A stretch of DNA of 64,000 nt from Endomicrobiales bacterium (GTDB lineage Bacteria > Elusimicrobiota > Endomicrobiia > Endomicrobiales > JALOBY01). The notes below the pieces were generated by a model. It saw only the letters and a program-made list of their open reading frames with translations, did no database searches and was not told the origin of the DNA. Positions 3,471 through 62,750 of this stretch are shown here, one piece after another. The position numbers were made by a program, and so were the translations under genes. The stretch is from contig CAWCNJ010000007.1 in the NCBI GenBank assembly GCA_963796955.1, forward strand, positions 1 through 64,000. Direction: 5' to 3'. How positions within the stretch are numbered: the stretch's first letter is position 1; each line of letters starts with the position of its first letter.

Positions 3471-3477
3471 CGGCAGA

Positions 3478-3498
3478 CCGGAGTCCGAAGTCCGGAGA
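3478..3498. repeat. Left arm of a 21-bp inverted repeat built from heptamers
   Basis: ccggagtccgaagtccggaga is the exact reverse complement of 3948-3968. Confidence 0.9.
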
Positions 3499-3533
3499 CC
3501 GGAGTAACGACGAACAACAGACAGAAGGAAAAA

Positions 3534-7381: not shown

Positions 7382-7383
7382 AA

Positions 7384-9092: not shown

Positions 9093-9183
9093 GGAGGGGT
9101 CGCATAGCGGCTTAGTGCGCTGGTTTGCTAAACCGGTGTACGGATGAAAATCTGTACCGAGGGTTCAAATCCCTCCCCCTCCG
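9093..9183 (+). tRNA. tRNA-Ser(GCT)
   Basis: Acceptor stem GGAGGGG/CCCCTCC; anticodon arm CTGGT-TTGCTAA-ACCGG; long variable arm; T arm GAGGG-TTCAAAT-CCCTC; CCA not encoded. Confidence 0.95.
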
Positions 9184-33437: not shown

Positions 33438-33992
33438 GTGAAGCAACTGGTCGTGGCGCTCATGATACTTGTGCAATTCACTCACGCTTCCGTCGAAGCG
33501 GTGATCTATTCGGATATCGGCTCGGCGCAGGTTTTTCAGCCTGTTTCCTGCGTGGAGCTTTTAAAGATCGTTTGCGGTAATACCGTCGACAGTCTTAAAG
33601 GCATGGCGGCCCTGGTTAATTTGGCTGCTGCCCGGTCAAAAATGCCGTCGCGCCCCGCAAGAGCCCCGGCGCGGAATGCAAGAAATACGGTGGCGATATT
33701 CCAGCCGGTGCGCCCCGGCGAGAACGGGCGAGATCTATCCGTTTCACCGGTTATGGACGAGCGGATGTATGCGCGCGGGAAAGCAGCTTTTAGCATGTTG
33801 CCTGCTGGGGCGGTAGTGTTATTTATAACTGTTTGCATGTTCTTTTTTCGCCGGGAATTACTTGCCTGGCTGGCAGGCTTTGTACATTTTCCCGGTAATG
33901 TCCTACTACTTATTTTCTTCCGGAAAACCCTGATCACCGTTACACGTGGCCGGGGTTTTCAAATTTCGGAGGCGCCATCATGCGGCGGTTAA
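33438..33992 (+). CDS. Hypothetical protein with a signal-like N-terminus and C-terminal TM segment; overlaps the giant gene start
   Basis: 184-aa ORF directly after the promoter; no recognisable domain. Confidence 0.45.
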   Translation: MKQLVVALMILVQFTHASVEAVIYSDIGSAQVFQPVSCVELLKIVCGNTVDSLKGMAALVNLAAARSKMPSRPARAPARNARNTVAIFQPVRPGENGRDLSVSPVMDERMYARGKAAFSMLPAGAVVLFITVCMFFFRRELLAWLAGFVHFPGNVLLLIFFRKTLITVTRGRGFQISEAPSCGG

Positions 33993-41656: not shown

Positions 41657-41723
41657 ATCGAAAACAGCTATCGCTCACTCAGAGAAAGAGAAAGCGGATA
41701 AGGCCGCTGGGCCCGTTGCGCCT

Positions 41724-47700: not shown

Positions 47701-50700
47701 GGAAGCTGAGCGGCGGTGATGCGGTGCTCACTATTTCAATTGCCGCAGACGGCGTATACGGCGTAAGGTTTACGGATATCATAAATGCCGATGTGAACGG
47801 CGTCGATCAGAAGATCTACTTTGGTCCGGATGGCACGGCCTACGGCCTGGACCGTTCCGTGGTCGCGGCCGCCGAACAAAAACACGACGGGATACTGATA
47901 CTTGCCGGCCAGGCGAATGGTTTGTCGGTCAAGAACGTAGGGCCTGCTAACGGTAAGGGAGAGGCCGGTGTTACCGACGAGAAACTCACCGGCGGCGACC
48001 TGGTACTGTATGTCGGCGATAAGTCGTTCGACACATGCGATGTAAGGCTCGCCGGCGTTCAGAACGGCGATCTGGACGGTGAGCATGTAAATATCATGTT
48101 CAAACCCGACGGCACCGCGTACGCCTTCGATACCGCCGCTATCCTCGCATCCAAACAACACGACGGCATTCTTATGCTCGCCGGCGAGGCGGCCGGCTTC
48201 AAAGTGCGCGAGGTCGGCGCGGTCGTCGACGGCCATGCCTCTTTCAGCACCGACTTGCTTACCAGCGGCGACCTGGGTGTAAAGGTCTCCTTTGATCCCA
48301 AAGGCGGCGAACCCGAAGTCAGGCTTGCCGGCATTATAACCAACGCCGAGATAGCCACCAAAATACAAACCGATATAAAACAGACGATCATCTTCGCCAA
48401 CGACGGCACGGCTTATGCCTTTACCGACGCGGCACTTGCGGAAGCGAAGGCAAATCGTGATTCTGCTGCATTCAACAATTTGCCGGCGGTGGTCATGCTT
48501 CGGCAGATGGGCATTCTTGGTGACAATACTAACGCGCATTTCGGAATAACTATCGACGGTGGAGCATCAGATTATGCGGTTCAAATAGTAGGAAAGAGCG
48601 GCATGACGAAGTCGTCGCTGCTGGGCGGCGACATGGTGCTGGAAATAGCGGAGAAGAACGATTCGTACGCAGCACAGGTTTCGGGAATAAATAACGCGCT
48701 TACGCAAGATCATACCTCGGTAAAGGTCTTCCTGTTCGGGAATAATGCGTATGCGCTCCTCCCCGAGCTGGATTTACCGGACGCAAAAAACGTCATGGTA
48801 GATTCACAGGGTAATCTGGTGGTCATGAGCCAGGATCAGGCTGGCAAAGCGTCCGCGGTATTAATAGACCATGAAGGCAACCAGACCGCTATTAAAGATG
48901 TGTACGCAGATAACGCCTGGATCACGACGGGATTGAAAGCCGCGGGAATAGGTGAAGACGTAAACGGTCTTATGTTGATATACAAAGCCGTCAGAGGAAA
49001 AGATGGGGCTCCTGATAAATGGGTGTCTATGTTCGTGCATCCCGTCGGCGACGGATATTTTGCGGAGCTGCAAAAATACACCTGCAACGACGGTTCGGTG
49101 ATATTTGAGTCTCAGGGTAAATCACGGTCGTTATATAAAGTAAATACGTCCGCCGATGGAACACAATCACTGGGCTTTATTCTCTCCGGATCGTATTCGT
49201 CAACCAGTGAAGGGGACACGGTCAGAAAGCAATTTGATGTTAATGCAAAAGACGGCAGCGTAACTTCCGATCTGTATGTTCAACGCGGCGCTGCCGGTTT
49301 ATCCGATGATGTCTTCAAAGATAAATACGGCACTATTCTAAACGAGGTTAAGATCAAGGGTATACTAAAATCAGATAGCGAAGGTTTCATCGCTAAAACA
49401 GTAAGCGGTTATGGCCTAGAGTTCAAAGGCGATGATGTTGTCGGCGCGTTTACGGGTGACTTGGATGTTAAAAACGGGAAGAGTAAGATCCATTACAGCT
49501 TCGGCTCGGATGGTATGTATCTTGGGTCAGTAGTTACCACAACCAGGGCGATCCCCGGCACGGCCGCGTATTATGTCACAACAGTCACGTACGACTATGA
49601 TGATAAAAAATCAGCTCCTGTTTCTGTGTTGAAGGGCAATATGGGTATCACGGGCATCTATACTGATCCGACCGGCAAACAGTATATTTCAGGCACCCTT
49701 GTTATAGATAAAGAGACCGGTCGTATAGACGTCGCCAACGGTGTTGGCCGTAGAACGGAACAAGGTATCCTCGTTGAATTTACCACCGACAAAAACGGCA
49801 GGGAGCGGGTTGTGCGGACATACGGGCCTACCGGGATAGATACTGATGTCAGAGCACAAAATTCTTATACGACTTACGCAAATGGACGGTCTTATGACCA
49901 TACACAAAACGCTTCAGGTTTCGGCAACTTTACCACCCCTGACGGCTCAGTATATACCAGCGGCAATGTCATAGTGGTGAACGGCGAATTGCGCGTAGGT
50001 GATGGCGATTGTACGTCATTCATGGGCAAGGGTAGTTTAGCCCTGACCGGCAAGAGCGATAGCCAGGGTAACGCGAGCTATTCGTGGATATCAGGTACCT
50101 ATCACGGCAAAGCATTAAATACCGAGCTGGTGCCGCTCAGCGGCGGTGGATATCAGATATTTGACGCTACTATTTTCAATGGCGACTGGTTCTCAAGCGT
50201 AGACGGAATGACTGATATAGATTTCACCATGGTTGGTTTGAAACAAGTAACCGTCGGTACGAAGGAAAATGCAAAACAAGTATGGATGTTTGAAGTCGGC
50301 ATCATCGGCAAACAAGATCAGGATTTCAATGGTGTGAACATGCCGCGCCAGGGCGTAGCGGGCGGTAATACTATCGCTCCTGTACCCAGCGGGGAGGAAT
50401 CGGAATTTGGATTGCAGCGTGAATTGTTGGTGACCACGGGTGATTATAACCGCTTTACAAAGAGTGCAACGATCAATATTACCGCAACGAGCGGCAATGT
50501 CGCCTTTAAAGCCGATATCCCTGTAGATTCTGCTCAAGATGGGCATATAAAATCCCTTACCTTCAGCGGTTTTGAAGAGGGGACGCGCGTCAGGATGGGC
50601 AAGGGCGGGCTGCAGTACGAAACGCAATACGCCGGTCAGGGCTTGCTTGCCTCCGGCTATCGCGATATTACCGAGGGAACGTACATAGATATACATATCC

Positions 50701-53700
50701 CCGGCAGCCTTGACGCGAATATGGCGTATACCATCGGCACGGTGAACGATCATTTCACCCTTACCGCTATGTCTAATCCCAATGGCACCGGTAAATCCCT
50801 TGGCGATATCACGGTGCTTGACAGAACGTTTGTTGACGGCAAGATTACCAGCTACGTATCAAGCAGCAGCAGCGATGATGTGTTCTATGGCGAGTATACA
50901 GTAGGCACTGTCCGTGTAGATCTTAAGAGCGCTGGGTTTGCTTCCACCAATATTTCTCCTTTCACTGCCGCCGGCGGTCATCTGCTGGGCGCTGTCGCTA
51001 ACGGAGTTGGCGCTGTTTGGAATGGCCTCCTCGCCGCCTGGTACACATATAAGAGCGATTCTGTATCTGCAAAACAGGCAGAGGAAATGTCCTCTCTCAT
51101 GGGAGCTGCTGCAATTGGTGATGCGGTCGGCTTTATCAACTCCTTGGGTAAGATCGGGGAATCCATAGGTGACTCGGCAGCAATACTTGCACAAGCGTTT
51201 AATTCTTGGACCAGCAATTGGAGCAATTGGTATGAGGGTGACAATGCTGCCGAGGTTAAGGCATATCATATGTCGCAGCTTAGGAACGACGGTATTATAA
51301 GCACGGTGGTCGGCCTTTCAATTGGCCTTAAAGACGCGGCGAAGGGATTTAGCTACGCATTGGTAGGCGGTATCGCGAGCAAGTTTGGCAGCGGGTGGGG
51401 CGTCGAAACTCTTGCAGAAGGGCAGTTGCTTTTCAGAGAAAGTTCTGTTGTTGAAGGTGCTATTAAAGGCGCTACCGTTGGGTGGGGTGTGGTAACCAAT
51501 GTCTCAAGCCGGGTCTGGGGTGGGGTCCTGTTCTTGGGTGGTATGCTCAATATGGCGTATGCGGAATACGATAATTTTAAACGGGCGTTGAAAGTTTCGA
51601 TATACAATGCGCTCATGAACGGTACGTTTGCGTTTAACATGGACGTTGATCTGAATGATGAAAATGCGCAGGCTGGGCATGATTGGATCACCGAAGGCAC
51701 TAATAGAATCTATGGCGAGAAAAATCTGTCTGACGATTCATTCGCCTTACGTTCGTCCGCGCGGTTGTGGGTTAGCACGGCATTTGTTGCTGTGTTAGTA
51801 ACCGGTGCCATCATGGCTATTGAAGCCGTTGCGACAGCGGCTACATCCGCAGTAACATCGACTGGTTCAATGATAAAGGCCGGATCATCTTTGTTAAATG
51901 CCGGACGGATAGTATTGTCCGATGCGCTAACCGGCGCTTATACTAATGCGATCGTTGATACCGGTCTTAGAATAGTTAAGGGTGAAGATGTGACCGTTGG
52001 AACGATAGTGAGCGCTTTTGTCAGCGGTGCGATCCTGGCCGGTGGTATGTCGTTGGGAGGCAGACTTGCCGGTTTTGTTGCGAACAACGTTAAATTTGGT
52101 GTGCAGGCCGCTACCCAAACACTTGCCGAAGGGGCTGCCGTTTATGCAAAGAGTGGGGGATTGTTTGCAAGCATTGGTGAACAAAGCTTGGTAAAAGCTG
52201 GTTCGATTACAGAAATAGGAGCCATACTTACTGCCAGAGTATTTAATAGTTTGAGTATATGGGTCGCCGGAGCTATAGGCAAACTAGGTGCTCTTGCCGC
52301 GAAGGGTGAAAAATTTGTTACCGCTGAGGCGATCTGGGGCATGGCTAAATCCGCGCCGTTGTTCACCTCGATCGAAATCGTTGCAGGTATTGGATATAGG
52401 ACATTGTTCAAGGGCATGTCATATGACTCAGCGCTTGCTGACCTGGGCGGCTATAATGGTATTGCCACCAAGTTCCTTACCCAGCCGCTTGAGTTTGCTG
52501 CCATGGGCATCACTCTCGGATTTATGATGCAGGTGTTCCAGGCTTCTAACCTAGTAACCAGAGCATTCTTTGGTAACCGTACTTTTGGCCCCGCGCTTGA
52601 ACTGTTCTCCACACGGCACACGTTTGGAAATTTATTCGATTCTATATCGGTATTGTTTGGCACAAAAACAGCCGCGGAAATAAGTGAAATGATGTTGCAG
52701 AACCTTGCGAAAGAAGGAGGCGCTGGTATTGCATTTATCGGTCATGCCGAAAGCGCGGCATTTACAGCCGCATCATTGTGGCTTGGCGAACAGGCCGGCT
52801 ACATTGTCGGCAGACAATTGGGTCTGAAAGGTCGGGACCTGGAAAAATTTGCCAGTGATGTGGCCTTCTACAGCCTTATGTTCATTCCTAAATCAACCGC
52901 TGATCCCAGCTATGCAGTACATGAAGTGCTCTCGCGCAGGGTCATAGATGCTGCTGGTAGAAGCGAGGAGGGTATTCAGGGGCTGCAAGTTGCTTTAGCG
53001 CTGGCACCTGACGCTGCTGCAGCACGCGATGTGCTGAGGCGGTATGATCCCACTCTAAATAAAGATTCATTAACTCCAGAATTGGTGGACCATTTACAGA
53101 CAAAACTTTCTGAAACGTCTGCACGTGACATTATTGTGCTTGGTTCTGTTGATGCCGCAGGCGCACAAGCCAAGGCAAACGAAGTGTTGCTTGCTAAAGA
53201 TGGTACGAAGGTTGATGGATATGTGGTGACCGAGGCATTGAAACGGGCAGCCATTGATCTGACCATTGAAGGAGCGCGCGAAAGTGTTTCTGCCGAAATT
53301 GCTGGCATGGGATTGCACACTGGTGATCCGGAAAGAGCGATTGACGAATGCCTTGAACGCCTTGGTTCGATTGTTCAAGACAAATCTAATCCAATTCGCT
53401 CATTGGCCGCAATAGCCATCGGACGTGAATGGTCTGATCTAAAGACGGCCGTCGGCCGCCTTGATATGCTCGCTGGAACAAATCTGGATATGGCTGCAAA
53501 GATCAGGGAGTTATATCAGGAATGGACCACCTCGTTATTAACAGGTGAACCGCTTGAGAATAACGCGGATTTAGCGCAATTAGTATCAGAGGTTTTCAAG
53601 CTTGCCTCGGAGAAAACAAGAATTGCCTTAACAGCAAAAATTGATAAGGCAACCGATCCAAAAGTCGTCAGAGATTTGACACAACAACTTAATAACCTGA

Positions 53701-56700
53701 CCGAGGCGGAAAAATCTACAGACTTTGCATCGCAGTTAGCTGTTTTCCATACGGATATGTTCCTTGTAGCAGACCGTGTGGTAGATTTTGACCGGAAGCC
53801 GCTGATCGACAGAATCGTTGATAACGCTAAGGATTGGAAGAGACAAAGTGATTCGGACCGTCTAAAAGCATTGAGCAATTATATTGAATCGGTCTATAGA
53901 GAAAGTGGTGTAAAGCTTAGCCAGAAGCAAAGAACATTGGTTTTTGAATTGAACGACAAACTCAAAAGGGGTGAAGATCTAACAGAAGCTGACCTTCAGG
54001 ATATTGCAGCCTGCGAGTCGCTTAGACCGGAAAAGGCCGGCGGTGCTAAATGGGGAGACAGCACTCCTAAACAGAGGGTTGAGTCATTGGTTAAATACCT
54101 CGATGATGCGATGCCATTAAATATTGAACAGCGTGCCCGTATTGATGCCCTGATCAAAAAAGGTGGCAGCTTAACTGAACTTGAACGGGCAGAGGTTCTG
54201 GACCTTGAGTCCAGGCGTGCAGCTGAAATGCTCGGGATCATACTTGGAGACAGGATACGTGAAGTAGGAACAAAGAATTTTACAGCTGAACAAAAAACCC
54301 GTCTCAGCGAACTTATGCGGAAATCCGGCGAAAGTGGTCTTACTGCGGAAGAGTTGTACGAATATAAGCGCCTTGAAACGTTGATGGAATACAATTTGCC
54401 GTCAGGTTTCGGTACGGCGGCAGTCACACTGGGCGATTTCTATGAGGGGCAATATGATGCATTTGCCAGTATTTTCAAGGCAATGATCAATGGTGAGAAA
54501 ATGGAGGGTGATACACTTTCCCGTTATGCACACCAGCTGCGTACTGCGGGTGGCAAGACAGTGATTGGGCTGTTCACCGAAATGCTTCTGGCTACCAGCA
54601 AAACGGCAACGAACAAATGTATCGGGTGGCTCACGAATACTGATGCCAATGCCCGTGATCTGGGTGCGCATTCCAGAATTATATTTGGTAATTCACTGGG
54701 CAGGGTATTGGTCCTTGATGGTGTGACACTTGAGAGAATGAAAAATAACGGCACACTACGCACAGAACTTGAAAAAGCTGATATCATTATAACAACATAC
54801 AATTCAATGAGCAGCTTGTATTCATCTTCAATGGCAAAATTGATCTCCTATGCTGACACTGACGCAAAAGGCAAGGAGATCGCAGAGCATAATATTGCAT
54901 TGTTGAAAACTGCTGAGCCGCCGATATTGACATCAAAGGATGCAAACGGGAAAATTCAATTAGCAAACGCGGCGGATTCCAGGCGTGCGATTGAGTGGCT
55001 TGCAAAGAATGGCGGGCTAGGGCTTGGGGAAACCGATCTGCCGTTGACACGGCTTGGGGATTTGATAGCTGACGAACTTGACTATTTGGGCACTATACCA
55101 ATGTCGGCACTTGCTTCATCCACCGGCAAGTATTACACAACCGCCCGGCCTGTTGAATATTATGCAGAATTGATGCGGATAAAAGAAACTAATAGATCGC
55201 TCAGCGATGATCTTGTTAGAACGCTGTTGGAGAAGTTCGCCGACATGGGTTTAAGCGAACAGATGCTGCGGATAGATTTTGGAGCTCCTGAAACTCTTAA
55301 AGGGAAGATGGAATTTTACGAAACACTATCCGGAGAAGTAGAACGTGCTACTACAAAAGCAAAAGGTGAAGACGGTAAGGTTACTGATCGTAGTGTCCTG
55401 AGTGATGCTGATATCAACAGTCTGGTCGATCGGTTATCTGATAGAGCAAAAGAACTTGGCCTCGACGTAGCGGAAGTAAGAAAAATGGTTGTTACACAGA
55501 TCGACAACCTGTGCAAAGATTCTTATGTACGGAATTTTTTAGCACCTAAGCTGCTTGATCTGGCAATGCGAACGCAGGCACCGGATAAGGGTATGTCAAC
55601 TATTAAGGGCAATCGGTCTGCTGAAACGAATCCGGTTGATAAAGATCCACGCGACCCTCGCGCCATGGGCCAGGACCGGCGTATGGGAGGAATATTAGTC
55701 GATGGCAAGCTGGTAGAGACCGTTGATCCTGCAACAAAACCAGATACAGAGACTCCTAAGGCTGAAACGAAAGGACACATCGCTCCTGATAAACTGAAAG
55801 GAGAGATCGATGCTCTTGTCGATCAGGTTCTCTCTAAATTCGGTAATTTGTTTAATGAACGCGAAATTCGTGAACAAATTAGTGGCGGTATGTCAGCAGC
55901 CGAAATGTTCTTGAAAACTGGTATGGAATACGATCCTAAAACCGGAAAATATAAGAAAAGAGAAGGCGGAGCACGCGTGGGTGAAGGTTCATATACTGTG
56001 CAAGGAGAAGGCGATAGCCGCCGTATCATTATTACCAATGATGGAAAAGGTGTCGAAAATCTGACGTTACCTGGTATGGCAGTTCTTGAAGCCTTAGAGC
56101 ATATTACGAATTTGACGCGTCCAACTAAAGAAACTTTTGTATCCAACAGCGTTGAGGCGATGAATGCGTGGGGCAACATCGTTGGATTCTCTGGCACATA
56201 CAGCGATTCCATAAAGGGTCTGTTAAAGACAATGGAATTTACTGAGGGTGGTGCTGCACCCACCGGCGTGAAAGTAGGCATCTATTCAGTACTAACCACT
56301 ACACAGGAAGCGATAGCTAAGGTTATAACTGAAGCGGTGAAAACTGTAGAACGTAGCGGTAGGGCTTCGATCAATTTGATCCTGACAAGTGGCTCTCATG
56401 CAACCGATCTTATGGTTGAAGAACTCAGAAAGAATGGAGTGGCTGAAGACGATATTGTAAGCTTAACGCTTACTAATATCAATCAGCAACTGTACAAATA
56501 TGGCCAAAAAATTGAAGCAATGCGAGAGGCGATCAGGTTTGCCGCAACTGATGAGGCACGCGTGGTAGCTGAAAGATCATATAACGCATACATCAAAGGA
56601 AGTGAATTAACAGATACTGATATAACAAAAATTACCTCCCAGGCTAATATTGCGGATATATCGCTCGATGAGAAAACATCTTTGCTAACAAAAGTATTAT

Positions 56701-59700
56701 CTGGTGAAACGAAGACAGGGTCGGCCAAATACGTTATTGGTGACGCCTACCTGCTTGGCCGCGGATGGAGCGTGGGCAGAATGGGAGATGCAGCCAATAA
56801 CCTGAAGGATTCATTCTTCAAGAGCTACACGCCAGAAAATGCAGATCTTCAATTGTCTCAATTCGGTGAAAAAATGCGTGAAATGAGATCGGCAATTGAA
56901 AATGCGACGACGCCAAAGGAAAAAGATGCGGCTGAGACGGCCTATAAGTCATTTGTTAAAGCTGCTAAACTTACTGATGTTGAAATCGCTACGATCGATG
57001 CGCCGGAATCCATTACTAAATTGTCTGATGCTGACAAAAAAGATCTTCTGGTAAAACTTCTGAAGACCGATTTGGTGCAGGCGACGATGTGGCTGGTAAA
57101 TGTGGACAAGTTCACCGCGACGCAGCTGGAGCAGGGATTAGGGCGTTTTGACCACTATGGCGACAGCCGCTTTGATCGTGAATTCTTCAATAAGGAGATC
57201 GTGCAAATCACGTCAGTTGAATCTGCTCGGGAGAGCGTGACGCTACGAGAAGCGGCAAAGACGAATCGCGGTTGGAATATCGATTTGATCATCAACAATA
57301 TGAAAGACGTGATGACCGCAAATGAAAAAGCTTCTCTTGAGAAAGCCGGTCAAAAGGTCTTGACCAGCGCATCTACGGAAAAAGCCGACTCGAAACCAGT
57401 TAGTCCGATCGAAGCACTGGGACGATTGCCGGAATCTGAACGTAAAACGGTGAAGGATGGTTTAGATACGACACCTGGTATGACCTATCATGCGGGAGGA
57501 GTAGCCTGGCTTACCGCAAAAGGACAGACCTATATCAGCAATGTAGCTGCGTTGAGAAACGGTGCGGTTCCATCTGGTAGTCAAGTTGTCTTATCGCCCA
57601 TGAATACCGCCCTGGTTGCCTTCTTCGGAGCGGCTGATATATTAGGTTTTGAGCAAGTTTCCGTTATCAAAGGACTAGAACTTACAGACAACACACCCAT
57701 GGCCGTCTCAATCGCACTCTATCTCGCAAAGAGTGGTTTAAGTCTCTCAGCGATCGTAGATATTGGCATCGCGTTACCTGTACTCAACACCGGTGGAGTA
57801 ACCATTGCTTCCGCCGACATCAAGGCTGCGCTTGCGTATCGTTATCCACCCGATGTAACACAGATTATGGCACACTATGGTGTTGCCCTGCCTCCTGCGG
57901 CGGTCTATAAATTGCTACAACCTAATGCCGGTAAATTACCTGCCCCGGTGAAGAAACAGATCGCCGTAATTGAAAAAGCGATCGCGGTGACCGAGAAGTT
58001 GAAGGACAGTGGCAGCGACAATGTATTAAAGAAACTGTACAGAGGCCTATTCACGGCTCGTCCGATAAATGTTCTTAAGAAACAACAAAAAATGTCGTTT
58101 GCCGAAATTATAGAATTAGCACAAGAAACAACGGGAGCCGGTGGAAAAACTCCTGCAATCGCTGAAGTTATTCAGTCCCCGGACTTTGCACTATTGGCGG
58201 CACTGCTGGGAGTATCAGATGCTTGCAAAGTAACCGGTGTCCTGCAATCGCTTAATAACCTTGGATTGAGTGGACAGTTTAATGTCTTAAAACCGGCAGA
58301 AATAATGGCTTATCTGGCCGGCCACATTACGTCTACGGACCTTATCAGCAAACTATCGCTGGGAAAACCAAAGAGCCTACCGATCAGAATGATCAATTCT
58401 CTTGTGGAACGTTTGCACCTTCTCGCGGCGTACGGTTCATCCCTGCTTGGTGTGGATCTTAACGCCACTCCGGTAGATATTTTGAATAGGCCGGTAAATC
58501 TCAGGATAGGTGATGCTGCCAAGTATCTTAAGGAAATTCAGGGCCAGTCAGTGCAGCAGGCAACACAGGCTGAACTGATGAAAGGCCTTGGCGCCATCGG
58601 GCAAGGGCCGGATGCAATGGCCAAACTTCAGCAGGTGCAGGCTGATGCCGCGGCTGCCGCTCAAAAGAATTTCTCGTTTACTATGGCTGATATTATTGCG
58701 GTAGCTGAAAAAAACGGCCTTTCAGATGAACAGGTACTCTCGATAGTGAATATCTCTTTTTCAAAAGAAGATCGGGCGAAAGTCTTGTCATTCTATAAAT
58801 CTGCGCAGTATATCCCGGGCTACGGCCCGCAGTTTGCTGCCACGCTAACTCTTGCGCAGCTTAGCGATCCTCAGTTTGATATGGATAAGGCTTACAAGCC
58901 CTTTGGCGACTCTTATGTGCAGGTACACAAAAAGGAGAACGGCGAATTCGGTGGTTCTCTTGTCGGTGCGTTGGACAACTTCATAGGCAACGGTAAAGGC
59001 ACAGGCGCTGCTCACACCGGCAAGTCTGCGGATCAGCTTATTAAGGAATTCCTTGAAACGCCGGCTGGTTACGCGGCGAAGGCAACGCTGCTTGATTACC
59101 TTCGTTCTAAAGGTATGCAGATAGCTGCCGCGGCTTTAACGTCTGGGCTTACAGGTTCTACTGTGTTGAACCCGCATGTTGAGGCCGCTTTGAAACAGTT
59201 AGATATCGTAGGGCAAGTTATCTCTGACGCTGTAGACCCCAATGACAAAGAAAAGGCAGCCAAGCCGAAAGCTCCCGGCAAGCCTATCTCAGAGAATGTT
59301 AAGCAGATGATAGTCCAGTTGCAGGATATTATTCAACTGGCCGCGTCATACGGCATAAATGATCTCAGCCCGGAAGATATATTAGATGTCTTAAAAGCCG
59401 CCTACCCTGCCGGCGTTGCTGAAAAATTCCAGCAAAACGGTCTGTCATTGCCGCCTGCGCCGGTCTTGTCCCTTCTGCGTCTGATGGGCGCAAGATCTAC
59501 CGGCCTTAAAGGTAATCTGCCTACGATAATCGCCAAATATGATGAAGCGATAGCCGCGGTGACGAAAGAAGTTGAGCCGCCCAGTACCACGGCGCGCGCT
59601 ATTAAGGCCATAAGAAAGGGCCAGAATATTTCTGTTCAGGAATTGTTGACAATGGCAACAACCCTGGCTTCGGGCAAGGATGCAGCGAACGCCAGCGCAG

Positions 59701-62483
59701 CGCCGAAGTCAATTGCAGTTGTAGCCACCCTGTTCGGTATAAAGAATGTTAACTCAGTGGCAGCCGTAGTAGAGGGATTGAAAGCACGGGGTGTCGATCT
59801 GGACCTTATTGATCTGTCTCAATTAAATTCATATCTTGATGGTGAGACACCGTCCCTGGACTTTGTTTCCAGACAGGCGGACGGCACTATAAACGGCTCT
59901 GTCGCTCAGCTGATAAATTCCCTGCTGGATATGATTTACGGCACGTTCCGTCTGCCGGTAAGCCTTAAGAACAAGCTGTTCATAGGCGGGGGAATTATAG
60001 GTAAGGGCGGTAACTACGACCTTCATGTAGTTACTAACTCCCTTAAGGATATTCGCGACGAAGCTCTAAGCCCGAGGGTGAAAGCCGCCATAGCGAAGGA
60101 TCCGGAAGCAACGAAAGACCGTACGGCTCTTTGGGCGCGGGAACGGAAGAATTATCAGTTCACGGTAGCCGATATCGCCAATGCCGCCGCGCAAAACCGG
60201 GTGCCGCCCGAAATCATACTTTCCATCTTGAATATTTCGCTTACGCCGCAGGAACGGCAACTTGCTGTTAAAAACATTAAAGCTGTACAAAGATTGCCGG
60301 AAGGTATTGAGTTCGCGAACACTCTGACGCTGGCTGAGATCACCGATCCGAAATTTACTGATGTGTCGGCTCAAAAGACGCTTCTTGCCCGCAAGCATAT
60401 TCAGCAGCTGCCGGACGGCACCTTTACGGGCTCCCTGGTCGCGGCTCTTGACGGTTATATCGGGAATGGTTCTCAGCAGTTGAGCATAAGCCCTGCAGTA
60501 ATTACAAGATTGATAGCCGAGTATCTTGCCTCAAGCCAGGAAGCATTTGCCGGTAAGCAGACCATAATTAATTTTGTGATGTCCCGGCTTGGTGCCTTAG
60601 ATAAGCCTGCAGCAGCGACCGCCCTTACGCCGGCTCAGCGCAGCATGTCAAAGGCCCGCATAAATGCACTGGGTGAATTCACTGACGGTATAAGCAGTAT
60701 CGATGAAGCTGTTGCCTTGGCTAAGCCAGCCATGCCCATGGCCGCGATAAAACCTGTTACCGTAGACCTGAAGCATGTGCTTACCAAGAGTCGCGAGCTT
60801 GCGCCCCTGTATAAGGCGGCGATCACCGCGCAAACAAGGTACAATGCTGTCGTTGGTGATAAGCCGGTAACGCCTGAACAGATAAGTAAAGCTAAAGCCG
60901 AATGGGAAGCCGCTGAGAAGGCGAAAGATCCGAAAGCAGATAGCCTGAAGGCGGAATTCAAGAACTTGGAACTTACATTTACCACACAACAAGCGGTTAA
61001 TACGGAATATAAGAATGCCGTTGATGCCTATTACGCCGCGAGGAATAAGTACCAGAACGCGACCGAAGCGCCGGCCATCGATGTTGCTGCGGCACCGGCT
61101 CCCACGGTGGCGGAGCCGGCTGTGACTCCTGTAGTGGCCGCATCACGCGTACCTTCCGCCAAGCTTAAAGCTTCCATTGAAGATCAAATGGCTGCCAGAT
61201 CCAATAAAGCTCCGAAAGCGAAAGTCGCGACAGCTGAAAAGCCTTCCGTAGCGCCGGTCCAAGCCGTTGCCGCAGCAGCTCCCTCTGCCGCCCAGGCTAT
61301 AACCCGCACTGTCGCTGCCTCCGGATTGACGGCCACAGTGGCACAACAACTTGCAGCCAAATCTAAGTCTGCCGACAAAGCTGCACCGGCGCCGGTCATC
61401 CTTGCTTCGAACAGGCATGCTGCCGCCCCTGTCGCTCAGGCGGAACCACCGGTCACTTCAGCATCCCCGGCGTTATTGCCCGCGTCTGAGGCGTCGCCGT
61501 TAACAGCCACTATCGCCGAGCAACTGTCGGCAAAGGCTCCCCAGAAAGGTTTGATCACAACAAAAGGAAGATCTGCAAAGAAGTCCCAGTCAGAACTTGC
61601 CGTTCATAATCTTGGGCTTGAAGCTGAGCGTGTGATGGTTGGTCCTCTGCCTGGTATTCCCGATCTGACCGGCCTTGCCACCGTTGCGGCGAAAGAAATT
61701 GAAACGCGGGCAGGGCGTCTCTTGGAAGACCGCGTGAATAAGGCCGTTGTTGACCGGCTTGTAAAACATGTTGAAGAATTGGTTACCGCTAAAAACGGTA
61801 TTGCCGGCGAACCGTTCACCGATCCCGCCGTTGGCACAGGGTATTCGTTCCCTAAGAACGACAAGTGGGAAATGTTCGCTTTTGATATGACAATGCTTGC
61901 GGGAGGCGAAGACAATGTTCCCGCGAAGATCGAATCAATTGTGAGCAAGCACGCTCTTGCGGAAAAGTTATTATTCGCGTTTGGCGAAAATGATGAAAAG
62001 AATTCTATAAGCGCTCATTTTGCTACAAGATCTTTAACGGTCGGCGAAGCAACACACACCTATCTGATCATAGTTCGTGAGTCAGTTGACCCCATCGGTC
62101 CGGCAAATTACGAAGCGGTTGCAAAGATCCAGGAAAAACTGTGGTCCGGAAAAGTAATCGATACTAAATTCGGCAACTCTCCTTTCTGGATGGCGAACTA
62201 TGGAGTGTTGAAAGACGGGCGCGTCGTTCTGGTAAATCCGGATGTTCTTGCACAGATCGATCCTGTCGCCAACGGCCAGGGGAATGTCCCGCTGCCCAGC
62301 CTGATACCGATGAACCCGGAAATAGCCGGTTTGGCGCAAGGTCCCAACTACAATGTTTTCGGTCGCGGCGACATGCACCGTGATCCGCTTGGTGATGCGG
62401 CCAGAAGAGCCGCGAAATACTTTACCGGCGACCAGGGTTCAGATAAGAACAATCTGAACAGGATGTTCAAACTTGCCGCATAA
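41724..62483 (+). CDS. Giant protein, C-terminal part (6919 aa; frame open from 41631): C39-like module, hydrophobic clusters, repeat arrays, SecA-like ATPase, kinase-like end
   Basis: 20.7 kb open frame; FNCAVDSL / GHFVVV / YKDNDG; TAGGKT, DELD, GFSGT, LGRG, QGLGR. No SD or signal peptide at 41724. Confidence 0.88.
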   Translation: MVHAASSDSTTVVTYITNKLAEFLTDTPAQQAAFLASLGLDMTTLMSLGLSLDQIAAYIATNSQSIIAYLTSQGSQIFNCAVDSLGNLIGAGTDKNGLAENIILVDIMTGSLSVQASQGLNDPIQFSALAIQQTAALYGIKLTGFSTDITGLTQAAAGGKPVVVQVTNSSGQGHFVVVTSITNGIVTYKDNDGTVKTMKVADFQNVWSGVILSQDQIAGDNVSRLSLLQTQQIMGASGNPITYVVRGLNAAGSYVVHTVTHAIAHPLDTIKTVQADISKVQDDIVAVAKKTWDIAGKVWTGITSKSTYQAIGTWIKHAADTIHHGTVETFKATWKLTKAIGNFFAAFGDLFTGDWSGFKSRMGGAWTNLTQSVGQVLSGAAEIVVGSIAITSIVAPLAVGIARACGSNWMNNNWNGIVKYGKGVVIVVAAIIIIYFTGGAGATVFGSTMLASACAATAVAVAVSVSAQMAFNHGNINYNQLGKTAVIAFASSIAMAGAGTLGQASTFWGQVAVSAARGAVIAGVTNIGSQLITTGHINWTKVALAVGIGAAQGAANGAMNYEVRISPSLQASSWYTAAWEGAVRGAVNSFISDMITEGIYDRKLHGYRILRDMGEGGVKGGVEGSLQGADDGKGGRTGGLFSKLNQSSDVAGKIFAGTFSGFATGTADYFAKCLIEWQAPDANGIKGAMMGGMFNGLISTALATRTYVPGGAPQPGSAYGIDGWLNGDNTLGFVVGTVLNTAGSFLASYISGAAVFYSTAGARGSYNDYLRGTDDGATGNRFEVMMAGSVEQALTSSIAESFARFDEAHVKYFEGKSLADHVNNLVGDETYKDPKTGTIYHSDAYIDFDARSGSFFIIAGHVDYKTPSGSVVTATYEDGGIVKAGDDTFNDYTALGNRYCGFALVPTTSDDQRVILLSGPIDAPTFVNGYDTPTYRLGLSANGKLSDLLTFNGSNGWSVDLQVNERSAQSPIPGKIFVTRAEDGSFNVFSLDPETGNPVDAGTISEDQLKESHGRVKLAGRLDGTAAEAVTTDLLGHTITRQDKFDAGDIIIHITPDAAGGGFVASFKGEVENAKIKGDYVHVTYGGGKFYALDGDAAEVGIANADNNLDLKGQGDGAIARVRGARRPVTTTDEGTDDLAAALDEILPGDGPATDGNTGESGGHIRATIRKSATPSAPAPDAGTPDGQPQPAPEATPSAPVPPVVRTDGVLALANTQGSTGIDPVSDLLDQLFPTPVTEGGPVNDQPPVTKNDANAPFEPLPGENTGDGSGAPTIVPHALRQVTPARSATADEDQPPVPPAETNPGAVPPAVENGGVLALGSPTSNLDAANIVDQLLTLAPAADTLPDQPPAAKDDTPPSAETLPGDKPGNGDSGPLTPHVLRQAPPAPTATTGEPPQPIVPDQPFVDGPIPDSVKTDGVMAFGNPGGNGDLLSYVEDQVVTTPPVSGGPAPVADTAEDQPPKDKDVVPPSAGPLPGDNAGAGESGPITAHAFKQTTPMRTPDAGEPPQLVLPDETLFGPDVPDTVKTDGVLGVGNPGGNGGLISYVEDAVVTPPVSAGPAPVSDAPEEPPTPPEAAPRAPEQLAMGPAGVLPPVGTQPSGLNTAPPPIAGSGSDEELMNAAVDDHSDTFTDETLTHADVRLKVTRGSDGTISVSYVGLVNASIDGVPQTIYYGPTGMAYAFDNPTLAGAAANGGRLVLKNQAPGMGVHHVGPLDDNGNADTSDDTLTGGDLVLRVSANNDGTFGVRFGGVENARIGGSDQTLCFRPDGAAFSLDNSFLEKYHGSSITLNDQATGFGVRTANGDKTLTGGDMVLRLSGSGPDGFNVRFAGFDGAEIDGVAFKTCQMTNGSYYAFNNTSMADAFDNNKGMLVLKDDGKGFGVEKVGALVNGKAVATSETLTAGDSAFKVTKNYDGTFDVRFATIQNAKIGDVSETLAFGRPDGVVYALNDDLLQEVIPHGKDHGNLVIADQGKGFAVQLAGPVGADGRSTVTSGKLSGGDAVLTISIAADGVYGVRFTDIINADVNGVDQKIYFGPDGTAYGLDRSVVAAAEQKHDGILILAGQANGLSVKNVGPANGKGEAGVTDEKLTGGDLVLYVGDKSFDTCDVRLAGVQNGDLDGEHVNIMFKPDGTAYAFDTAAILASKQHDGILMLAGEAAGFKVREVGAVVDGHASFSTDLLTSGDLGVKVSFDPKGGEPEVRLAGIITNAEIATKIQTDIKQTIIFANDGTAYAFTDAALAEAKANRDSAAFNNLPAVVMLRQMGILGDNTNAHFGITIDGGASDYAVQIVGKSGMTKSSLLGGDMVLEIAEKNDSYAAQVSGINNALTQDHTSVKVFLFGNNAYALLPELDLPDAKNVMVDSQGNLVVMSQDQAGKASAVLIDHEGNQTAIKDVYADNAWITTGLKAAGIGEDVNGLMLIYKAVRGKDGAPDKWVSMFVHPVGDGYFAELQKYTCNDGSVIFESQGKSRSLYKVNTSADGTQSLGFILSGSYSSTSEGDTVRKQFDVNAKDGSVTSDLYVQRGAAGLSDDVFKDKYGTILNEVKIKGILKSDSEGFIAKTVSGYGLEFKGDDVVGAFTGDLDVKNGKSKIHYSFGSDGMYLGSVVTTTRAIPGTAAYYVTTVTYDYDDKKSAPVSVLKGNMGITGIYTDPTGKQYISGTLVIDKETGRIDVANGVGRRTEQGILVEFTTDKNGRERVVRTYGPTGIDTDVRAQNSYTTYANGRSYDHTQNASGFGNFTTPDGSVYTSGNVIVVNGELRVGDGDCTSFMGKGSLALTGKSDSQGNASYSWISGTYHGKALNTELVPLSGGGYQIFDATIFNGDWFSSVDGMTDIDFTMVGLKQVTVGTKENAKQVWMFEVGIIGKQDQDFNGVNMPRQGVAGGNTIAPVPSGEESEFGLQRELLVTTGDYNRFTKSATINITATSGNVAFKADIPVDSAQDGHIKSLTFSGFEEGTRVRMGKGGLQYETQYAGQGLLASGYRDITEGTYIDIHIPGSLDANMAYTIGTVNDHFTLTAMSNPNGTGKSLGDITVLDRTFVDGKITSYVSSSSSDDVFYGEYTVGTVRVDLKSAGFASTNISPFTAAGGHLLGAVANGVGAVWNGLLAAWYTYKSDSVSAKQAEEMSSLMGAAAIGDAVGFINSLGKIGESIGDSAAILAQAFNSWTSNWSNWYEGDNAAEVKAYHMSQLRNDGIISTVVGLSIGLKDAAKGFSYALVGGIASKFGSGWGVETLAEGQLLFRESSVVEGAIKGATVGWGVVTNVSSRVWGGVLFLGGMLNMAYAEYDNFKRALKVSIYNALMNGTFAFNMDVDLNDENAQAGHDWITEGTNRIYGEKNLSDDSFALRSSARLWVSTAFVAVLVTGAIMAIEAVATAATSAVTSTGSMIKAGSSLLNAGRIVLSDALTGAYTNAIVDTGLRIVKGEDVTVGTIVSAFVSGAILAGGMSLGGRLAGFVANNVKFGVQAATQTLAEGAAVYAKSGGLFASIGEQSLVKAGSITEIGAILTARVFNSLSIWVAGAIGKLGALAAKGEKFVTAEAIWGMAKSAPLFTSIEIVAGIGYRTLFKGMSYDSALADLGGYNGIATKFLTQPLEFAAMGITLGFMMQVFQASNLVTRAFFGNRTFGPALELFSTRHTFGNLFDSISVLFGTKTAAEISEMMLQNLAKEGGAGIAFIGHAESAAFTAASLWLGEQAGYIVGRQLGLKGRDLEKFASDVAFYSLMFIPKSTADPSYAVHEVLSRRVIDAAGRSEEGIQGLQVALALAPDAAAARDVLRRYDPTLNKDSLTPELVDHLQTKLSETSARDIIVLGSVDAAGAQAKANEVLLAKDGTKVDGYVVTEALKRAAIDLTIEGARESVSAEIAGMGLHTGDPERAIDECLERLGSIVQDKSNPIRSLAAIAIGREWSDLKTAVGRLDMLAGTNLDMAAKIRELYQEWTTSLLTGEPLENNADLAQLVSEVFKLASEKTRIALTAKIDKATDPKVVRDLTQQLNNLTEAEKSTDFASQLAVFHTDMFLVADRVVDFDRKPLIDRIVDNAKDWKRQSDSDRLKALSNYIESVYRESGVKLSQKQRTLVFELNDKLKRGEDLTEADLQDIAACESLRPEKAGGAKWGDSTPKQRVESLVKYLDDAMPLNIEQRARIDALIKKGGSLTELERAEVLDLESRRAAEMLGIILGDRIREVGTKNFTAEQKTRLSELMRKSGESGLTAEELYEYKRLETLMEYNLPSGFGTAAVTLGDFYEGQYDAFASIFKAMINGEKMEGDTLSRYAHQLRTAGGKTVIGLFTEMLLATSKTATNKCIGWLTNTDANARDLGAHSRIIFGNSLGRVLVLDGVTLERMKNNGTLRTELEKADIIITTYNSMSSLYSSSMAKLISYADTDAKGKEIAEHNIALLKTAEPPILTSKDANGKIQLANAADSRRAIEWLAKNGGLGLGETDLPLTRLGDLIADELDYLGTIPMSALASSTGKYYTTARPVEYYAELMRIKETNRSLSDDLVRTLLEKFADMGLSEQMLRIDFGAPETLKGKMEFYETLSGEVERATTKAKGEDGKVTDRSVLSDADINSLVDRLSDRAKELGLDVAEVRKMVVTQIDNLCKDSYVRNFLAPKLLDLAMRTQAPDKGMSTIKGNRSAETNPVDKDPRDPRAMGQDRRMGGILVDGKLVETVDPATKPDTETPKAETKGHIAPDKLKGEIDALVDQVLSKFGNLFNEREIREQISGGMSAAEMFLKTGMEYDPKTGKYKKREGGARVGEGSYTVQGEGDSRRIIITNDGKGVENLTLPGMAVLEALEHITNLTRPTKETFVSNSVEAMNAWGNIVGFSGTYSDSIKGLLKTMEFTEGGAAPTGVKVGIYSVLTTTQEAIAKVITEAVKTVERSGRASINLILTSGSHATDLMVEELRKNGVAEDDIVSLTLTNINQQLYKYGQKIEAMREAIRFAATDEARVVAERSYNAYIKGSELTDTDITKITSQANIADISLDEKTSLLTKVLSGETKTGSAKYVIGDAYLLGRGWSVGRMGDAANNLKDSFFKSYTPENADLQLSQFGEKMREMRSAIENATTPKEKDAAETAYKSFVKAAKLTDVEIATIDAPESITKLSDADKKDLLVKLLKTDLVQATMWLVNVDKFTATQLEQGLGRFDHYGDSRFDREFFNKEIVQITSVESARESVTLREAAKTNRGWNIDLIINNMKDVMTANEKASLEKAGQKVLTSASTEKADSKPVSPIEALGRLPESERKTVKDGLDTTPGMTYHAGGVAWLTAKGQTYISNVAALRNGAVPSGSQVVLSPMNTALVAFFGAADILGFEQVSVIKGLELTDNTPMAVSIALYLAKSGLSLSAIVDIGIALPVLNTGGVTIASADIKAALAYRYPPDVTQIMAHYGVALPPAAVYKLLQPNAGKLPAPVKKQIAVIEKAIAVTEKLKDSGSDNVLKKLYRGLFTARPINVLKKQQKMSFAEIIELAQETTGAGGKTPAIAEVIQSPDFALLAALLGVSDACKVTGVLQSLNNLGLSGQFNVLKPAEIMAYLAGHITSTDLISKLSLGKPKSLPIRMINSLVERLHLLAAYGSSLLGVDLNATPVDILNRPVNLRIGDAAKYLKEIQGQSVQQATQAELMKGLGAIGQGPDAMAKLQQVQADAAAAAQKNFSFTMADIIAVAEKNGLSDEQVLSIVNISFSKEDRAKVLSFYKSAQYIPGYGPQFAATLTLAQLSDPQFDMDKAYKPFGDSYVQVHKKENGEFGGSLVGALDNFIGNGKGTGAAHTGKSADQLIKEFLETPAGYAAKATLLDYLRSKGMQIAAAALTSGLTGSTVLNPHVEAALKQLDIVGQVISDAVDPNDKEKAAKPKAPGKPISENVKQMIVQLQDIIQLAASYGINDLSPEDILDVLKAAYPAGVAEKFQQNGLSLPPAPVLSLLRLMGARSTGLKGNLPTIIAKYDEAIAAVTKEVEPPSTTARAIKAIRKGQNISVQELLTMATTLASGKDAANASAAPKSIAVVATLFGIKNVNSVAAVVEGLKARGVDLDLIDLSQLNSYLDGETPSLDFVSRQADGTINGSVAQLINSLLDMIYGTFRLPVSLKNKLFIGGGIIGKGGNYDLHVVTNSLKDIRDEALSPRVKAAIAKDPEATKDRTALWARERKNYQFTVADIANAAAQNRVPPEIILSILNISLTPQERQLAVKNIKAVQRLPEGIEFANTLTLAEITDPKFTDVSAQKTLLARKHIQQLPDGTFTGSLVAALDGYIGNGSQQLSISPAVITRLIAEYLASSQEAFAGKQTIINFVMSRLGALDKPAAATALTPAQRSMSKARINALGEFTDGISSIDEAVALAKPAMPMAAIKPVTVDLKHVLTKSRELAPLYKAAITAQTRYNAVVGDKPVTPEQISKAKAEWEAAEKAKDPKADSLKAEFKNLELTFTTQQAVNTEYKNAVDAYYAARNKYQNATEAPAIDVAAAPAPTVAEPAVTPVVAASRVPSAKLKASIEDQMAARSNKAPKAKVATAEKPSVAPVQAVAAAAPSAAQAITRTVAASGLTATVAQQLAAKSKSADKAAPAPVILASNRHAAAPVAQAEPPVTSASPALLPASEASPLTATIAEQLSAKAPQKGLITTKGRSAKKSQSELAVHNLGLEAERVMVGPLPGIPDLTGLATVAAKEIETRAGRLLEDRVNKAVVDRLVKHVEELVTAKNGIAGEPFTDPAVGTGYSFPKNDKWEMFAFDMTMLAGGEDNVPAKIESIVSKHALAEKLLFAFGENDEKNSISAHFATRSLTVGEATHTYLIIVRESVDPIGPANYEAVAKIQEKLWSGKVIDTKFGNSPFWMANYGVLKDGRVVLVNPDVLAQIDPVANGQGNVPLPSLIPMNPEIAGLAQGPNYNVFGRGDMHRDPLGDAARRAAKYFTGDQGSDKNNLNRMFKLAA
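45140..46560 (+). repeat. Four Pro/acidic coding repeats of ~105 aa
   Basis: VRTDGVLALAN, VENGGVLALGS, VKTDGVMAFGNPGGNG, VKTDGVLGVGNPGGNG spaced ~310-330 bp apart. Confidence 0.8.
46610..48760 (+). repeat. About seven or eight ~95-aa beta-rich coding repeats
   Basis: Recurring LTGGD.VL.V..VR(F/L)..NA..G...F.PDG.AY.F. Confidence 0.8.
57810..60720 (+). repeat. Two ~500-aa helical coding repeats
   Basis: YPPDV..LPPAAV / YPAGV..LPPAPV; NFSFTMADI / NYQFTVADI; GSLVGALDNFIGNG / GSLVAALDGYIGNG. Confidence 0.8.
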
Positions 62484-62606: not shown

Positions 62607-62678
62607 GCCGGCGTAGCTCAGCGGTAGAGCAATCGCTTCGTAAGCGATGGGTCGGAGGTTCAATCCCTCTCGCCGGCT
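62607..62678 (+). tRNA. tRNA-Thr(CGT)
   Basis: GCCGGCG/CGCCGGC acceptor stem; ATCGC-TTCGTAA-GCGAT anticodon arm; GGTTCAATCC T arm. Confidence 0.96.
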
Positions 62679-62717: not shown

Positions 62718-62750
62718 GTAATGCCTCTACCCGGTATCTTTAGGATGATC

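Follow-up and report, generated by a model that had tools for sequence, protein, structure and literature searches.

A divergent, SecA-derived motor domain within a giant protein of an Elusimicrobiota bacterium

The window analysed here (the whole stretch of 64,000 nucleotides) belongs to a member of the phylum Elusimicrobiota, in the order of Endomicrobiaceae, and all features described below lie on its forward strand. Frame +3 was found to be free of stop codons from position 41631 to 62480 (6,950 codons), with an ORF of 6,919 amino acids called at 41724..62483. Upstream of this, Pfam and frame analysis identified an ORF of 2,558 amino acids (33980..41656) possessing a Shine-Dalgarno site, a signal-peptide-like N-terminus, two C39-like domains, the first of which lacks the catalytic His, and a long region of helical repeats. 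A C39-like peptidase domain with both Cys and His in place is found in the called ORF (41950..42362, Pfam PF03412, E 1.4e-6). Comparison of the frames showed that the two ORFs are joined by a +1 frame change at 41631..41656. The called ORF is probably not a whole gene, representing instead the last three quarters of a single gene for approximately 9,500 amino acids, with the upstream ORF probably being the N-terminal part that continues into it across the frameshift; in relatives G033, G044 and G039 the corresponding regions form one gene. If the two frames are one gene, the giant protein carries a C39 peptidase close to its signal peptide at the N-terminus. The frame change itself is probably an assembly indel. 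A programmed frameshift was judged unlikely because rpoB, rpoC, EF-G and EF-Tu are split too in the same assembly, although a frame switch was seen at just one of 26 other loci (30 kb) of this assembly. The earlier note on this DNA was right to describe a domain embedded in a giant protein.

C39 was the sole family matched in the giant protein with Pfam and NCBIfam. Two Gly/Ala-rich hydrophobic clusters were identified, the first with three predicted membrane segments (42831..43430) and the second (50931..52970) containing the 400-residue window of highest hydrophobicity in the frame, with two strongly hydrophobic segments only. The protein, whose last residues are Ala-Ala, ends in a domain (61698..62483) that is common to the window and one relative (G111). 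Homologues of the motor domain described below were found within giant frames of 22 of 300 Elusimicrobiota genomes, in carrier proteins of 4,000-10,600 residues, some of which also end in Ala-Ala or Ser-Ala; a search of the small-genome genus g11 (44 genomes) yielded none.

Downstream of the second hydrophobic cluster, where the earlier note had placed it, a SecA-derived DEAD motor was delimited at 54381..57350 using the family alignment, fold searches and a profile search. The location first proposed (54430..57170) stands, with the conserved unit being slightly wider than those limits. NBD1 comes first, then an enlarged PPXD-like clamp insertion that separates motif II from motif III, then NBD2, and last the beginning of what in SecA is the helix after NBD2. 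Eight motifs, from FYEGQ to QGLGRFDHYGD, were located at positions starting at 54438, 54534, 54630, 54777, 55065, 56184, 56754 and 57132 (frame +3), all in the single 6,950-codon frame and in SecA order, as had been claimed.

A family alignment of 25 rows, 24 of which are filled at each position (two rows being partial), was used to examine conservation, with residues of the motor numbered from window base 54381. Identical in 24 of 24 rows were K59 of Walker A (motif I, 54534..54560), D231, E232 and D234 of Walker B (motif II, 55071..55082), G602, G605 and T606 of motif III (56184..56198), G793, R794 and G795 of motif Va (56757..56765), and Q918, G921 and R922 of an altered motif VI (57132..57173), while Q24 of the Q motif (F20, Q24; 54438..54452) was found in 23 of 23 filled rows. 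The catalytic residues that characterize motifs I, II, III and Va of SecA are thus present in all 24 filled rows. As median pairwise identity within the family is 29% (one near-duplicate pair included), the identity of catalytic residues in every row shows that these motifs are not due to chance. Among the 53 columns that are at least 95% identical, 35 fall within the motif windows, which were chosen after the alignment had been seen and make up 140 of the 990 residues. The exception is motif VI, where SecA has two arginines three residues apart: the first is retained (24/24), with the second replaced by H925 in the window and by His (12) or Pro (12) across the 24 rows. An invariant arginine, R930, lies five residues after H925 and is a candidate substitute for it.

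Direct searches did not reveal a kinship with SecA. The window domain gave no SecA match against Pfam (SecA_DEAD included), PDB sequences, NCBIfam or PHROGs, and no match to its own genome's SecA by phmmer or BLASTP; a scan of genome contigs with the window protein alone also returned no match, and a SecA profile met the window protein at an E of about 190. The SecA_DEAD HMM that the earlier note had put forward as a check thus failed for the window, and matched one of 16 family members (E 0.012), whereas Pfam assigned DEAD to five and ResIII to five of the same 16. Alignment of the family to SecA with hhalign gave low probabilities (13-44%), with one RecQ scoring equally over Walker A. The DEAD and ResIII assignments would favour an SF2 enzyme that acts on nucleic acids (a helicase or translocase) and has no relation to SecA, or else a dead relic. 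Set against this, the family was missed by both DEAD-box and Mfd profiles (best E 7.9 and 8.8), SecA alone matched the stretch leading up to motif III (hhalign and profile hits), and the invariant catalytic residues are not expected of a relic.

Kinship was found through relatives. A family profile search of 1.84 billion proteins found 67, and eight of the 32 that were scanned carry SecA families; one is a full canonical SecA (E 4.7e-5), and matches P0061 and P0064 carry SecA_PP_bind, the clamp domain, alone. An Omnitrophota protein (P0030) was reached directly at E 3.9e-31. In the other direction, a profile built from 11 Pfam-positive SecA domains of giant proteins found family members at up to E 2e-8 and the window at 0.016, although in a genome scan it gave a DEAD-box helicase a better rank (1.7e-6) than the window (4.3); this profile may be taken to support SecA kinship of the window through its relatives only.

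Structure prediction was performed on the motor. The single-sequence fold was unusable (pLDDT 38.5), and the alignment-based model (27 family rows, no templates) reached pLDDT 75.2 and pTM 0.64. Using this model, Foldseek ranked SecA at positions 1-9 (best E 5.8e-7), the ten best matches of VIA were SecA or SecA2 (Z 15.6-17.1), and a fold search independent of Foldseek placed SecA first (Z 16.8 and 16.7). The margin of SecA over other SF2 folds was a Z of about 1.6-1.7, with Dbp5 at 15.4 and Hef at 15.2, scores that give the unrelated-helicase explanation some support. The VIA alignments covered 477-487 residues with three SecY-bound SecA chains, 333-424 with other SecA chains and 287-356 with other SF2 chains. 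The motor is thereby predicted to be a tandem RecA fold (NBD1 and NBD2), as had been proposed, and neither of the outcomes named beforehand as refuting, an unrelated helicase as best match or no predicted tandem RecA fold, occurred.

A phylogeny against housekeeping SecA, also suggested at the outset, was built from 48 rows, among them 13 of the family's 25 and 8 of the 31 for SecA. The motor family formed a clade apart on long branches (support 100/100), with housekeeping SecA forming one of its own (99/99) and the branch uniting the two at 91/91 and not starred, which leaves room for an origin outside SecA; this tree is weak evidence because motif III of the outgroup was misaligned to the clamp region. 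An unrelated SF2 enzyme or relic is nonetheless considered very improbable, being largely refuted by the fold searches and the profile search of 1.84 billion proteins, both of which reach SecA. Descent of the motor from SecA is supported, other helicase families being less fitting; direct searches miss the kinship, yet the relatives settle the matter, and the original observation of a SecA-like domain is therefore upheld.

The mostly helical insertion at the PPXD position covers approximately 350 residues (55101..56150; hhalign, profile hits and fold alignment). Nucleic-acid SF2 helicases (DEAD-box, RecG, Mfd, RecQ) have motif III about 30 residues past motif II, whereas the distance here is 371 residues, compared to about 180 in SecA. 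A clamp domain between motifs II and III, as in SecA, is plainly seen in the final third of this insertion, which matches the SecA preprotein cross-linking domain (hhalign, 493-688 to SecA 305-477), with the remainder being enlarged and without a sequence match. The role of the PPXD as a clamp is described in PMC8082313. After NBD2, a sequence profile matched the wing, scaffold or two-helix finger in none of 11 tails (best E 0.1), where extreme divergence is possible; the same profile detected this region in L093 at 7.5e-5. As the two-helix finger is the pushing element of SecA, a power stroke here would lack its known part. A plain SecA-on-SecYEG mechanism is doubtful, because all 24 rows carry His or Pro in place of motif VI's second arginine and no wing or scaffold was detected.

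The genome (G000) was found to encode SecY and a housekeeping SecA separate from the giant protein (G000:C8:153090-155762). The motor could be imagined as a membrane-tethered accessory SecA which, like SecA2, docks on ordinary SecYEG and exports very long substrates; the longest alignments of the model are with SecY-engaged SecA, and self-export has been proposed for giant proteins in a preprint (bioRxiv 10.1101/2023.11.21.568195). However, the two-helix finger not found in the 11 tails sits at the SecY interface, according to PMC4907695, and no sec genes were identified within the 64-kb window using Pfam. This explanation is held to be quite improbable.

In all 13 frames compared, which are kin and several of which are cut by contig ends, the most hydrophobic 400-residue window begins 922-1,266 residues ahead of the first Walker A. 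This fixed spacing suggests a channel-plus-motor module, with the second cluster as a candidate membrane anchor or channel. The clusters share little sequence, that of the window being missed by a profile of the other 12, and two segments are equally consistent with a toxin-like inserting region and a resident membrane domain. The explanation that we tentatively favour, at somewhat below an even chance, is that the SecA-derived core and clamp, situated approximately 1,000 residues behind the cluster, act at the cell's own membrane, on its cytoplasmic face, as an ATP-driven polypeptide clamp and ratchet. The ordinary Sec system would begin export from the N-terminal signal peptide, and the cluster would settle in the inner membrane, standing in for the undetected membrane-docking domains of SecA as an anchor and possibly a conduit. 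ATP cycling would make the clamp grip and release an unfolded part of the giant protein, or a partner, and would bias movement of the polypeptide through the membrane. As the motor would be made approximately 6,800 residues after the signal peptide (presuming the full protein), it could act in cis only late, where it would finish assembly or feed through the C-terminal 600-1,700 residues.

A bolder version of this ratchet is regarded as decidedly unlikely. Here, the cluster, helical spacer and SecA clamp would form a self-contained, SecY-independent translocase of approximately 2,200 residues that grabs cargo by its free Ala-Ala or Ser-Ala C-terminus and ratchets it through its own channel, outward or into a neighbour, with stand-alone NBD2 proteins of 300 residues that have lost the arginines (NBD2 proteins of the stand-alone kind are P0038, P0040, P0041, P0043 and P0045) poisoning the motor as decoys or immunity factors. 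The motor may instead be a non-translocating ATP switch or tether motor, its clamp holding a segment of its own protein and thereby controlling conformation, C39 processing or tether retraction. The undetected pushing finger and altered motif VI would suit this role, as would the two different SecA-like modules that three relatives bear in tandem, which are needless for a simple exporter. The fixed spacing to the membrane cluster and the retention of the clamp point instead to a role at a membrane conduit, no precedent was found in the literature consulted, and such a switch appears distinctly improbable.

In another explanation the whole protein is exported, the cluster enters the membrane of a neighbour and the motor, at work in the target's cytoplasm, pulls in C-terminal cargo with ATP of the target. 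The order of signal peptide, C39 proteases, long spacer, Gly/Ala-rich cluster, motor and variable C-terminal domain is toxin-like, and the Atlas gave weak leads to RHS-associated (0.90) and pre-toxin (0.85) clusters, with kinase-like families (0.89-0.90) for the C-terminal domain. The lack of matches in the g11 genomes also fits. Precedents were found in giant actinobacterial secreted toxins, where a SecA-like ATPase domain is proposed to aid the toxin's own secretion (PMC8195603), and in Amoebophilus effectors with SecA-like domains (PMC3482391); as in these, a SecA-like ATPase is fused into a very large exported protein. This likeness is one of description. No ART, metallopeptidase, GT4 or MFS domains were found in the giant protein. 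Against delivery, a motor of 990 residues must itself pass the target membrane before ATP could be used, and the Atlas scores lie below its reliability threshold, the weakly kinase-like reading being a lead only that gained no support from Pfam, PDB or PHROGs. Furthermore, neither a toxin domain nor an immunity gene was identified (Pfam, NCBIfam, PHROGs and domain searches), and many relatives live in the gut and are not known to be predators. Delivery into a neighbour is therefore considered unlikely.

Compared to SecA and SecA2 (PDB 1nkt, 6itc, 5eul, 3bxz, 4uaq), the motor shares a predicted tandem RecA fold, motifs I, Ia, II, III and Va, the first half of motif VI and the clamp insertion between motifs II and III. 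It differs in being 14-17% identical, in its replaced second arginine and undetected wing, scaffold and two-helix finger, and in being embedded in a giant protein, whereas stand-alone SecA has about 800-900 amino acids. SecA-like domains in giant proteins had been mentioned in the earlier note, and a precedent was found: bioRxiv 10.1101/2023.11.21.568195 describes SecA_DEAD and preprotein-binding domains in giant proteins of Omnitrophota and Actinobacteriota, and the architecture of a SecA core in a giant membrane protein is, on that account, already known. Shared features, as far as described there, are great protein length, a divergent SecA core lying beside membrane segments, C39 domains close to the signal peptide, a separate housekeeping SecA and long branches; the wing and scaffold are reported missing there and were not detected here. 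The present host is from another phylum, Elusimicrobiota, and the protein has approximately 9,500 amino acids as opposed to more than 30,000. Set beside that account, the window motor is invisible to Pfam SecA_DEAD, its kinship resting on profile and fold, and the protein has few membrane segments, no detected carbohydrate-enzyme cargo, an altered motif VI, an insertion approximately twice that of SecA, Ala-Ala or Ser-Ala ends and tandem copies in some relatives. Giant proteins of the Archaeovorin and Dockerin types have at least 30,000 amino acids and glycosyltransferase/hydrolase or dockerin cargo, in contrast to the size and C39 domains found here. No literature on the Elusimicrobiota motor family was found in a search with most subscription journals outside its coverage, and preprint supplements may list such proteins.

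How bacterial proteins of 5,000 to 100,000 residues are exported and deployed is an open problem, for which this motor family provides a compact test case of 990 residues, with a confident in silico fold and clear invariant residues to mutate. The family also shows that counts based on Pfam underestimate how many SecA-like domains giant proteins contain. If the cluster and motor move polypeptide without SecY or a two-helix finger, they would constitute a new translocase, and such movement would test directly whether SecA can ratchet by its clamp alone.

All eight motifs that the earlier note had read in SecA order were found in the +3 frame, within a stretch that has no stop codon (window 41631-62480), in a DEAD core (the motor domain, window 54381-57350, forward strand; residues numbered from base 54381) inside a giant protein. 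Residues K59, D231, E232, D234, G602, G605, T606, G793, R794, G795, Q918, G921 and R922 were each identical in 24/24 rows of the 25-row family alignment. As the median identity of these rows is 29%, the invariance of the catalytic residues indicates, at sequence level, that the motor domain holds an ATP site under selection.

The motor domain alone matched no Pfam family and no PDB sequence, and gave no significant alignment to the SecA of its own genome (G000:C8:153090-155762); because it matched nothing useful by itself, its reality was decided by its relatives. Profile comparison of the family, an HHpred-type check, gave collinear SecA matches, the best of which runs from the end of the clamp (a preprotein cross-linking, PPXD-like insertion between motifs II and III) through motif III into the beginning of NBD2 (the second RecA-like half), with an E value of 2e-3 without two divergent rows (L102, L103) and 2e-4 with them. 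Comparison with Pfam-positive giant-protein SecA domains gave 1e-5, with DEAD-box 0.02 (8e-4 with the two divergent rows, Walker A only) and with Mfd 0.45. The reading of the motor as a nucleic-acid helicase or relic is very improbable, and the conserved ATP site counts against a relic. The family profile matched 67 of 1.84 billion proteins, including one from Omnitrophota; among the 32 scanned for domain families, SecA families were identified in eight (one a complete SecA, two of them fragments with the preprotein cross-linking domain only), weak DEAD or ResIII in three, an AAA domain elsewhere in one and nothing in 20.

A structural model built from 27 rows (the 25 family rows and the two divergent ones; pLDDT 75.2, pTM 0.64) placed SecA on top in Foldseek, VIA and a wide fold search. 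SecA occupied Foldseek ranks 1-9 (best E 5.8e-7; global rmsd 15-28 A), and the VIA top ten were SecA or SecA2 (Z 15.6-17.1), followed by Dbp5 (15.4), with 477-487 residues aligned to three SecY-bound SecA chains compared to 287-356 for other SF2 proteins. The wide search gave SecA at 16.8 and 16.7, then Hef at 15.2; the margins of SecA over other SF2 proteins in these model-based searches are modest. In the tree, the split between SecA with the giant-protein domains and 12 other SF2 proteins had a support of no more than 91/91, and the outgroup aligned badly. SecA descent of the motor domain is considered highly probable. Overall, the earlier interpretation of a built-in SecA-like motor was partly supported, the part upheld by profile and fold searches being the SecA-like ATPase within the giant protein.

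The motif II-III spacing of SecA is about half that of the motor domain (371 residues), and the second motif VI arginine of SecA is replaced by His or Pro in 24/24 family rows. Five residues past this position lies R930, invariant in the family, which we infer to substitute for the arginine. Conservation was found to end just past the first helix after NBD2, and a profile of the SecA C-terminal part gave no match in 11 tails behind the motor domain, which together suggest from sequence that the scaffold, wing and two-helix finger were lost. In SecA the clamp holds and the finger pushes, according to passages of two publications (PMC8082313, PMC4907695). The suggested loss of the finger favours a putative role as a non-translocating switch or tether motor, still judged quite unlikely, and counts against that of a tethered accessory SecA on SecYEG, which the alignment to SecY-bound chains would favour and which is decidedly unlikely.

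No Shine-Dalgarno site was found for the called ORF (start 41724); the upstream ORF (start 33980) possesses one and a signal-like N-terminal sequence. A +1 frame change (window 41631-41656) separates these ORFs of 2,558 and 6,919 aa, codon scores change frame at about 41600-41660, homology to the upstream C39 (peptidase) repeat starts ahead of 41724, and in relatives one frame holds the same signal type, C39 and motor. Furthermore, rpoB, rpoC, EF-G and EF-Tu are each split over several frames (G000:C5:33347-45116) and several other giant ORFs of this genome overlap in different frames, so the assembly contains indel errors. From these observations, the frame change is probably an assembly indel, and the two ORFs probably belong to a single gene encoding about 9,500 aa.

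Its product would begin with the signal and a long helical repeat region flanked by C39-like domains, three in all (the repeat region, window 36200-41650, shows a Cys-Gly motif some 12 times and matches no Pfam family). Hydrophobic cluster 1 (42831-43430), repeats, a Pro-rich linker, hydrophobic cluster 2 (50931-52970), a helical spacer, the motor and a tail of 1,710 residues follow in this order. In 13/13 frames (11 genomes and the database protein P0002), which are kin and not independent, the 400-residue stretch of highest hydrophobicity starts 922-1,266 residues ahead of the first Walker A, three frames being measured to a hand-placed upstream second SecA-like copy. An Ala-Ala or Ser-Ala end (window 62472-62483 and relatives) was identified in 10/11 frames with a real stop, likewise kin and not independent, compared to 2% of 942 long frames of the source genome; including Ala-Gly, such ends occur in 6/24 of its frames of at least 2,000 aa versus 14/884 of 300-1,000 aa. 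Ends of this type resemble ClpX signals. The C-terminal domain (window 61698-62480) shares about 31% identity with its counterpart in G111, and the Atlas gave weak kinase-like leads for it, to Kinase-PolyVal, T7 kinase and YrbL; a degenerate C39-like domain takes its place in other relatives.

The preferred reading, at somewhat below even probability, is that the motor would work as an ATP-driven clamp and ratchet within the cytoplasm of the producer. The hydrophobic cluster would anchor the motor and possibly serve as its route, and the clamp and ratchet would act at a late stage, either on the giant protein as such or on its tail. A putative role in delivery into a target cell, which the toxin-like order of the domains favours, is unlikely.

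The nearest protein to the motor domain, with 38% identity across it, comes from a genome of the Endomicrobiales, and relatives bearing names are Endomicrobiaceae, Ruminimicrobiellum and Endomicrobium. By this kinship the window (G000:C7:1-64000) probably stems from an Elusimicrobiota bacterium of the same order. A single protein as query matched in 12/60 same-order genomes and the family profile in 22/300 phylum genomes, every listed match lying in a frame of 1,250-10,611 codons, the short ones being contig-end cuts. No match was found in the 44 genomes searched of g11, a genus of small genomes and, judging by that size, presumably the endosymbiont one (cf. the available part of PMC11257099). 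Further giant frames of the phylum carry SecA_DEAD-positive domains of other kinds (L091-L101; G137, G071, G063, G027, G002, G029, G004, G025, G024, G126), which form a graded series from near-canonical to very diverged. Two different SecA-like modules lie in tandem in one frame in G018:C35, G044:C13 and G033:C66 (L146-L154), the upstream one being a second subtype that occurs alone in G003 and G174. Five stand-alone proteins without names (P0038, P0040, P0041, P0043, P0045; 290-313 aa) match NBD2 only (E 1e-14 to 1e-19) and have lost the motif Va and VI arginines; a search of 301 phylum genomes gave none of them as a separate gene, and they are possibly decoys or regulators.

Seven large proteins with a common signal peptide and N-terminal domain form a second family in the source genome (G000:C3:33549, C4:265691, C5:83360, C5:3521-6703, C6:14130, C6:26363, C9:89689); none of them matched the SecA-like profile. 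The window also encodes a 546-aa fusion of FliF C-terminal and FliG domains (7354-8994), a 23S rRNA intervening-sequence or bAvd-like four-helix protein (3534-3899), two tRNA genes (9093-9183 and 62607-62678, the latter directly after the giant gene), and PorV/PorQ-like genes together with proteins bearing FlgD-Ig tails, which resemble components of type IX secretion (435-5437, 17637-20228, 62721-63740), one PorV-like gene sitting after the giant gene.

SecA-like domains in giant proteins, mentioned in the earlier note, are in print: a preprint describes, in the part available, SecA DEAD and preprotein-binding domains in Omnitrophota and Actinobacteriota giants that are divergent and have neither wing nor scaffold, with self-export proposed (10.1101/2023.11.21.568195). 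Portions of further sources report C39 and SecA_DEAD as the two largest architecture clusters (a 2026 preprint, 10.64898/2026.06.07.730766) and Elusimicrobiota as rich in huge uncharacterised proteins (PMC11573180), while the available part of the Lipocone preprint mentions Omnitrophota giants and not SecA (10.1101/2025.01.14.632903). The literature search found no publication on the Elusimicrobiota SecA-like giant-protein family. SecA-like motors in giant proteins are of a kind already known and this family is a new variant, to which the analysis adds the fixed cluster-to-motor spacing, the altered motif VI, the Ala-Ala/Ser-Ala ends, the probable union of the two ORFs in one gene and the stand-alone proteins with NBD2 only.
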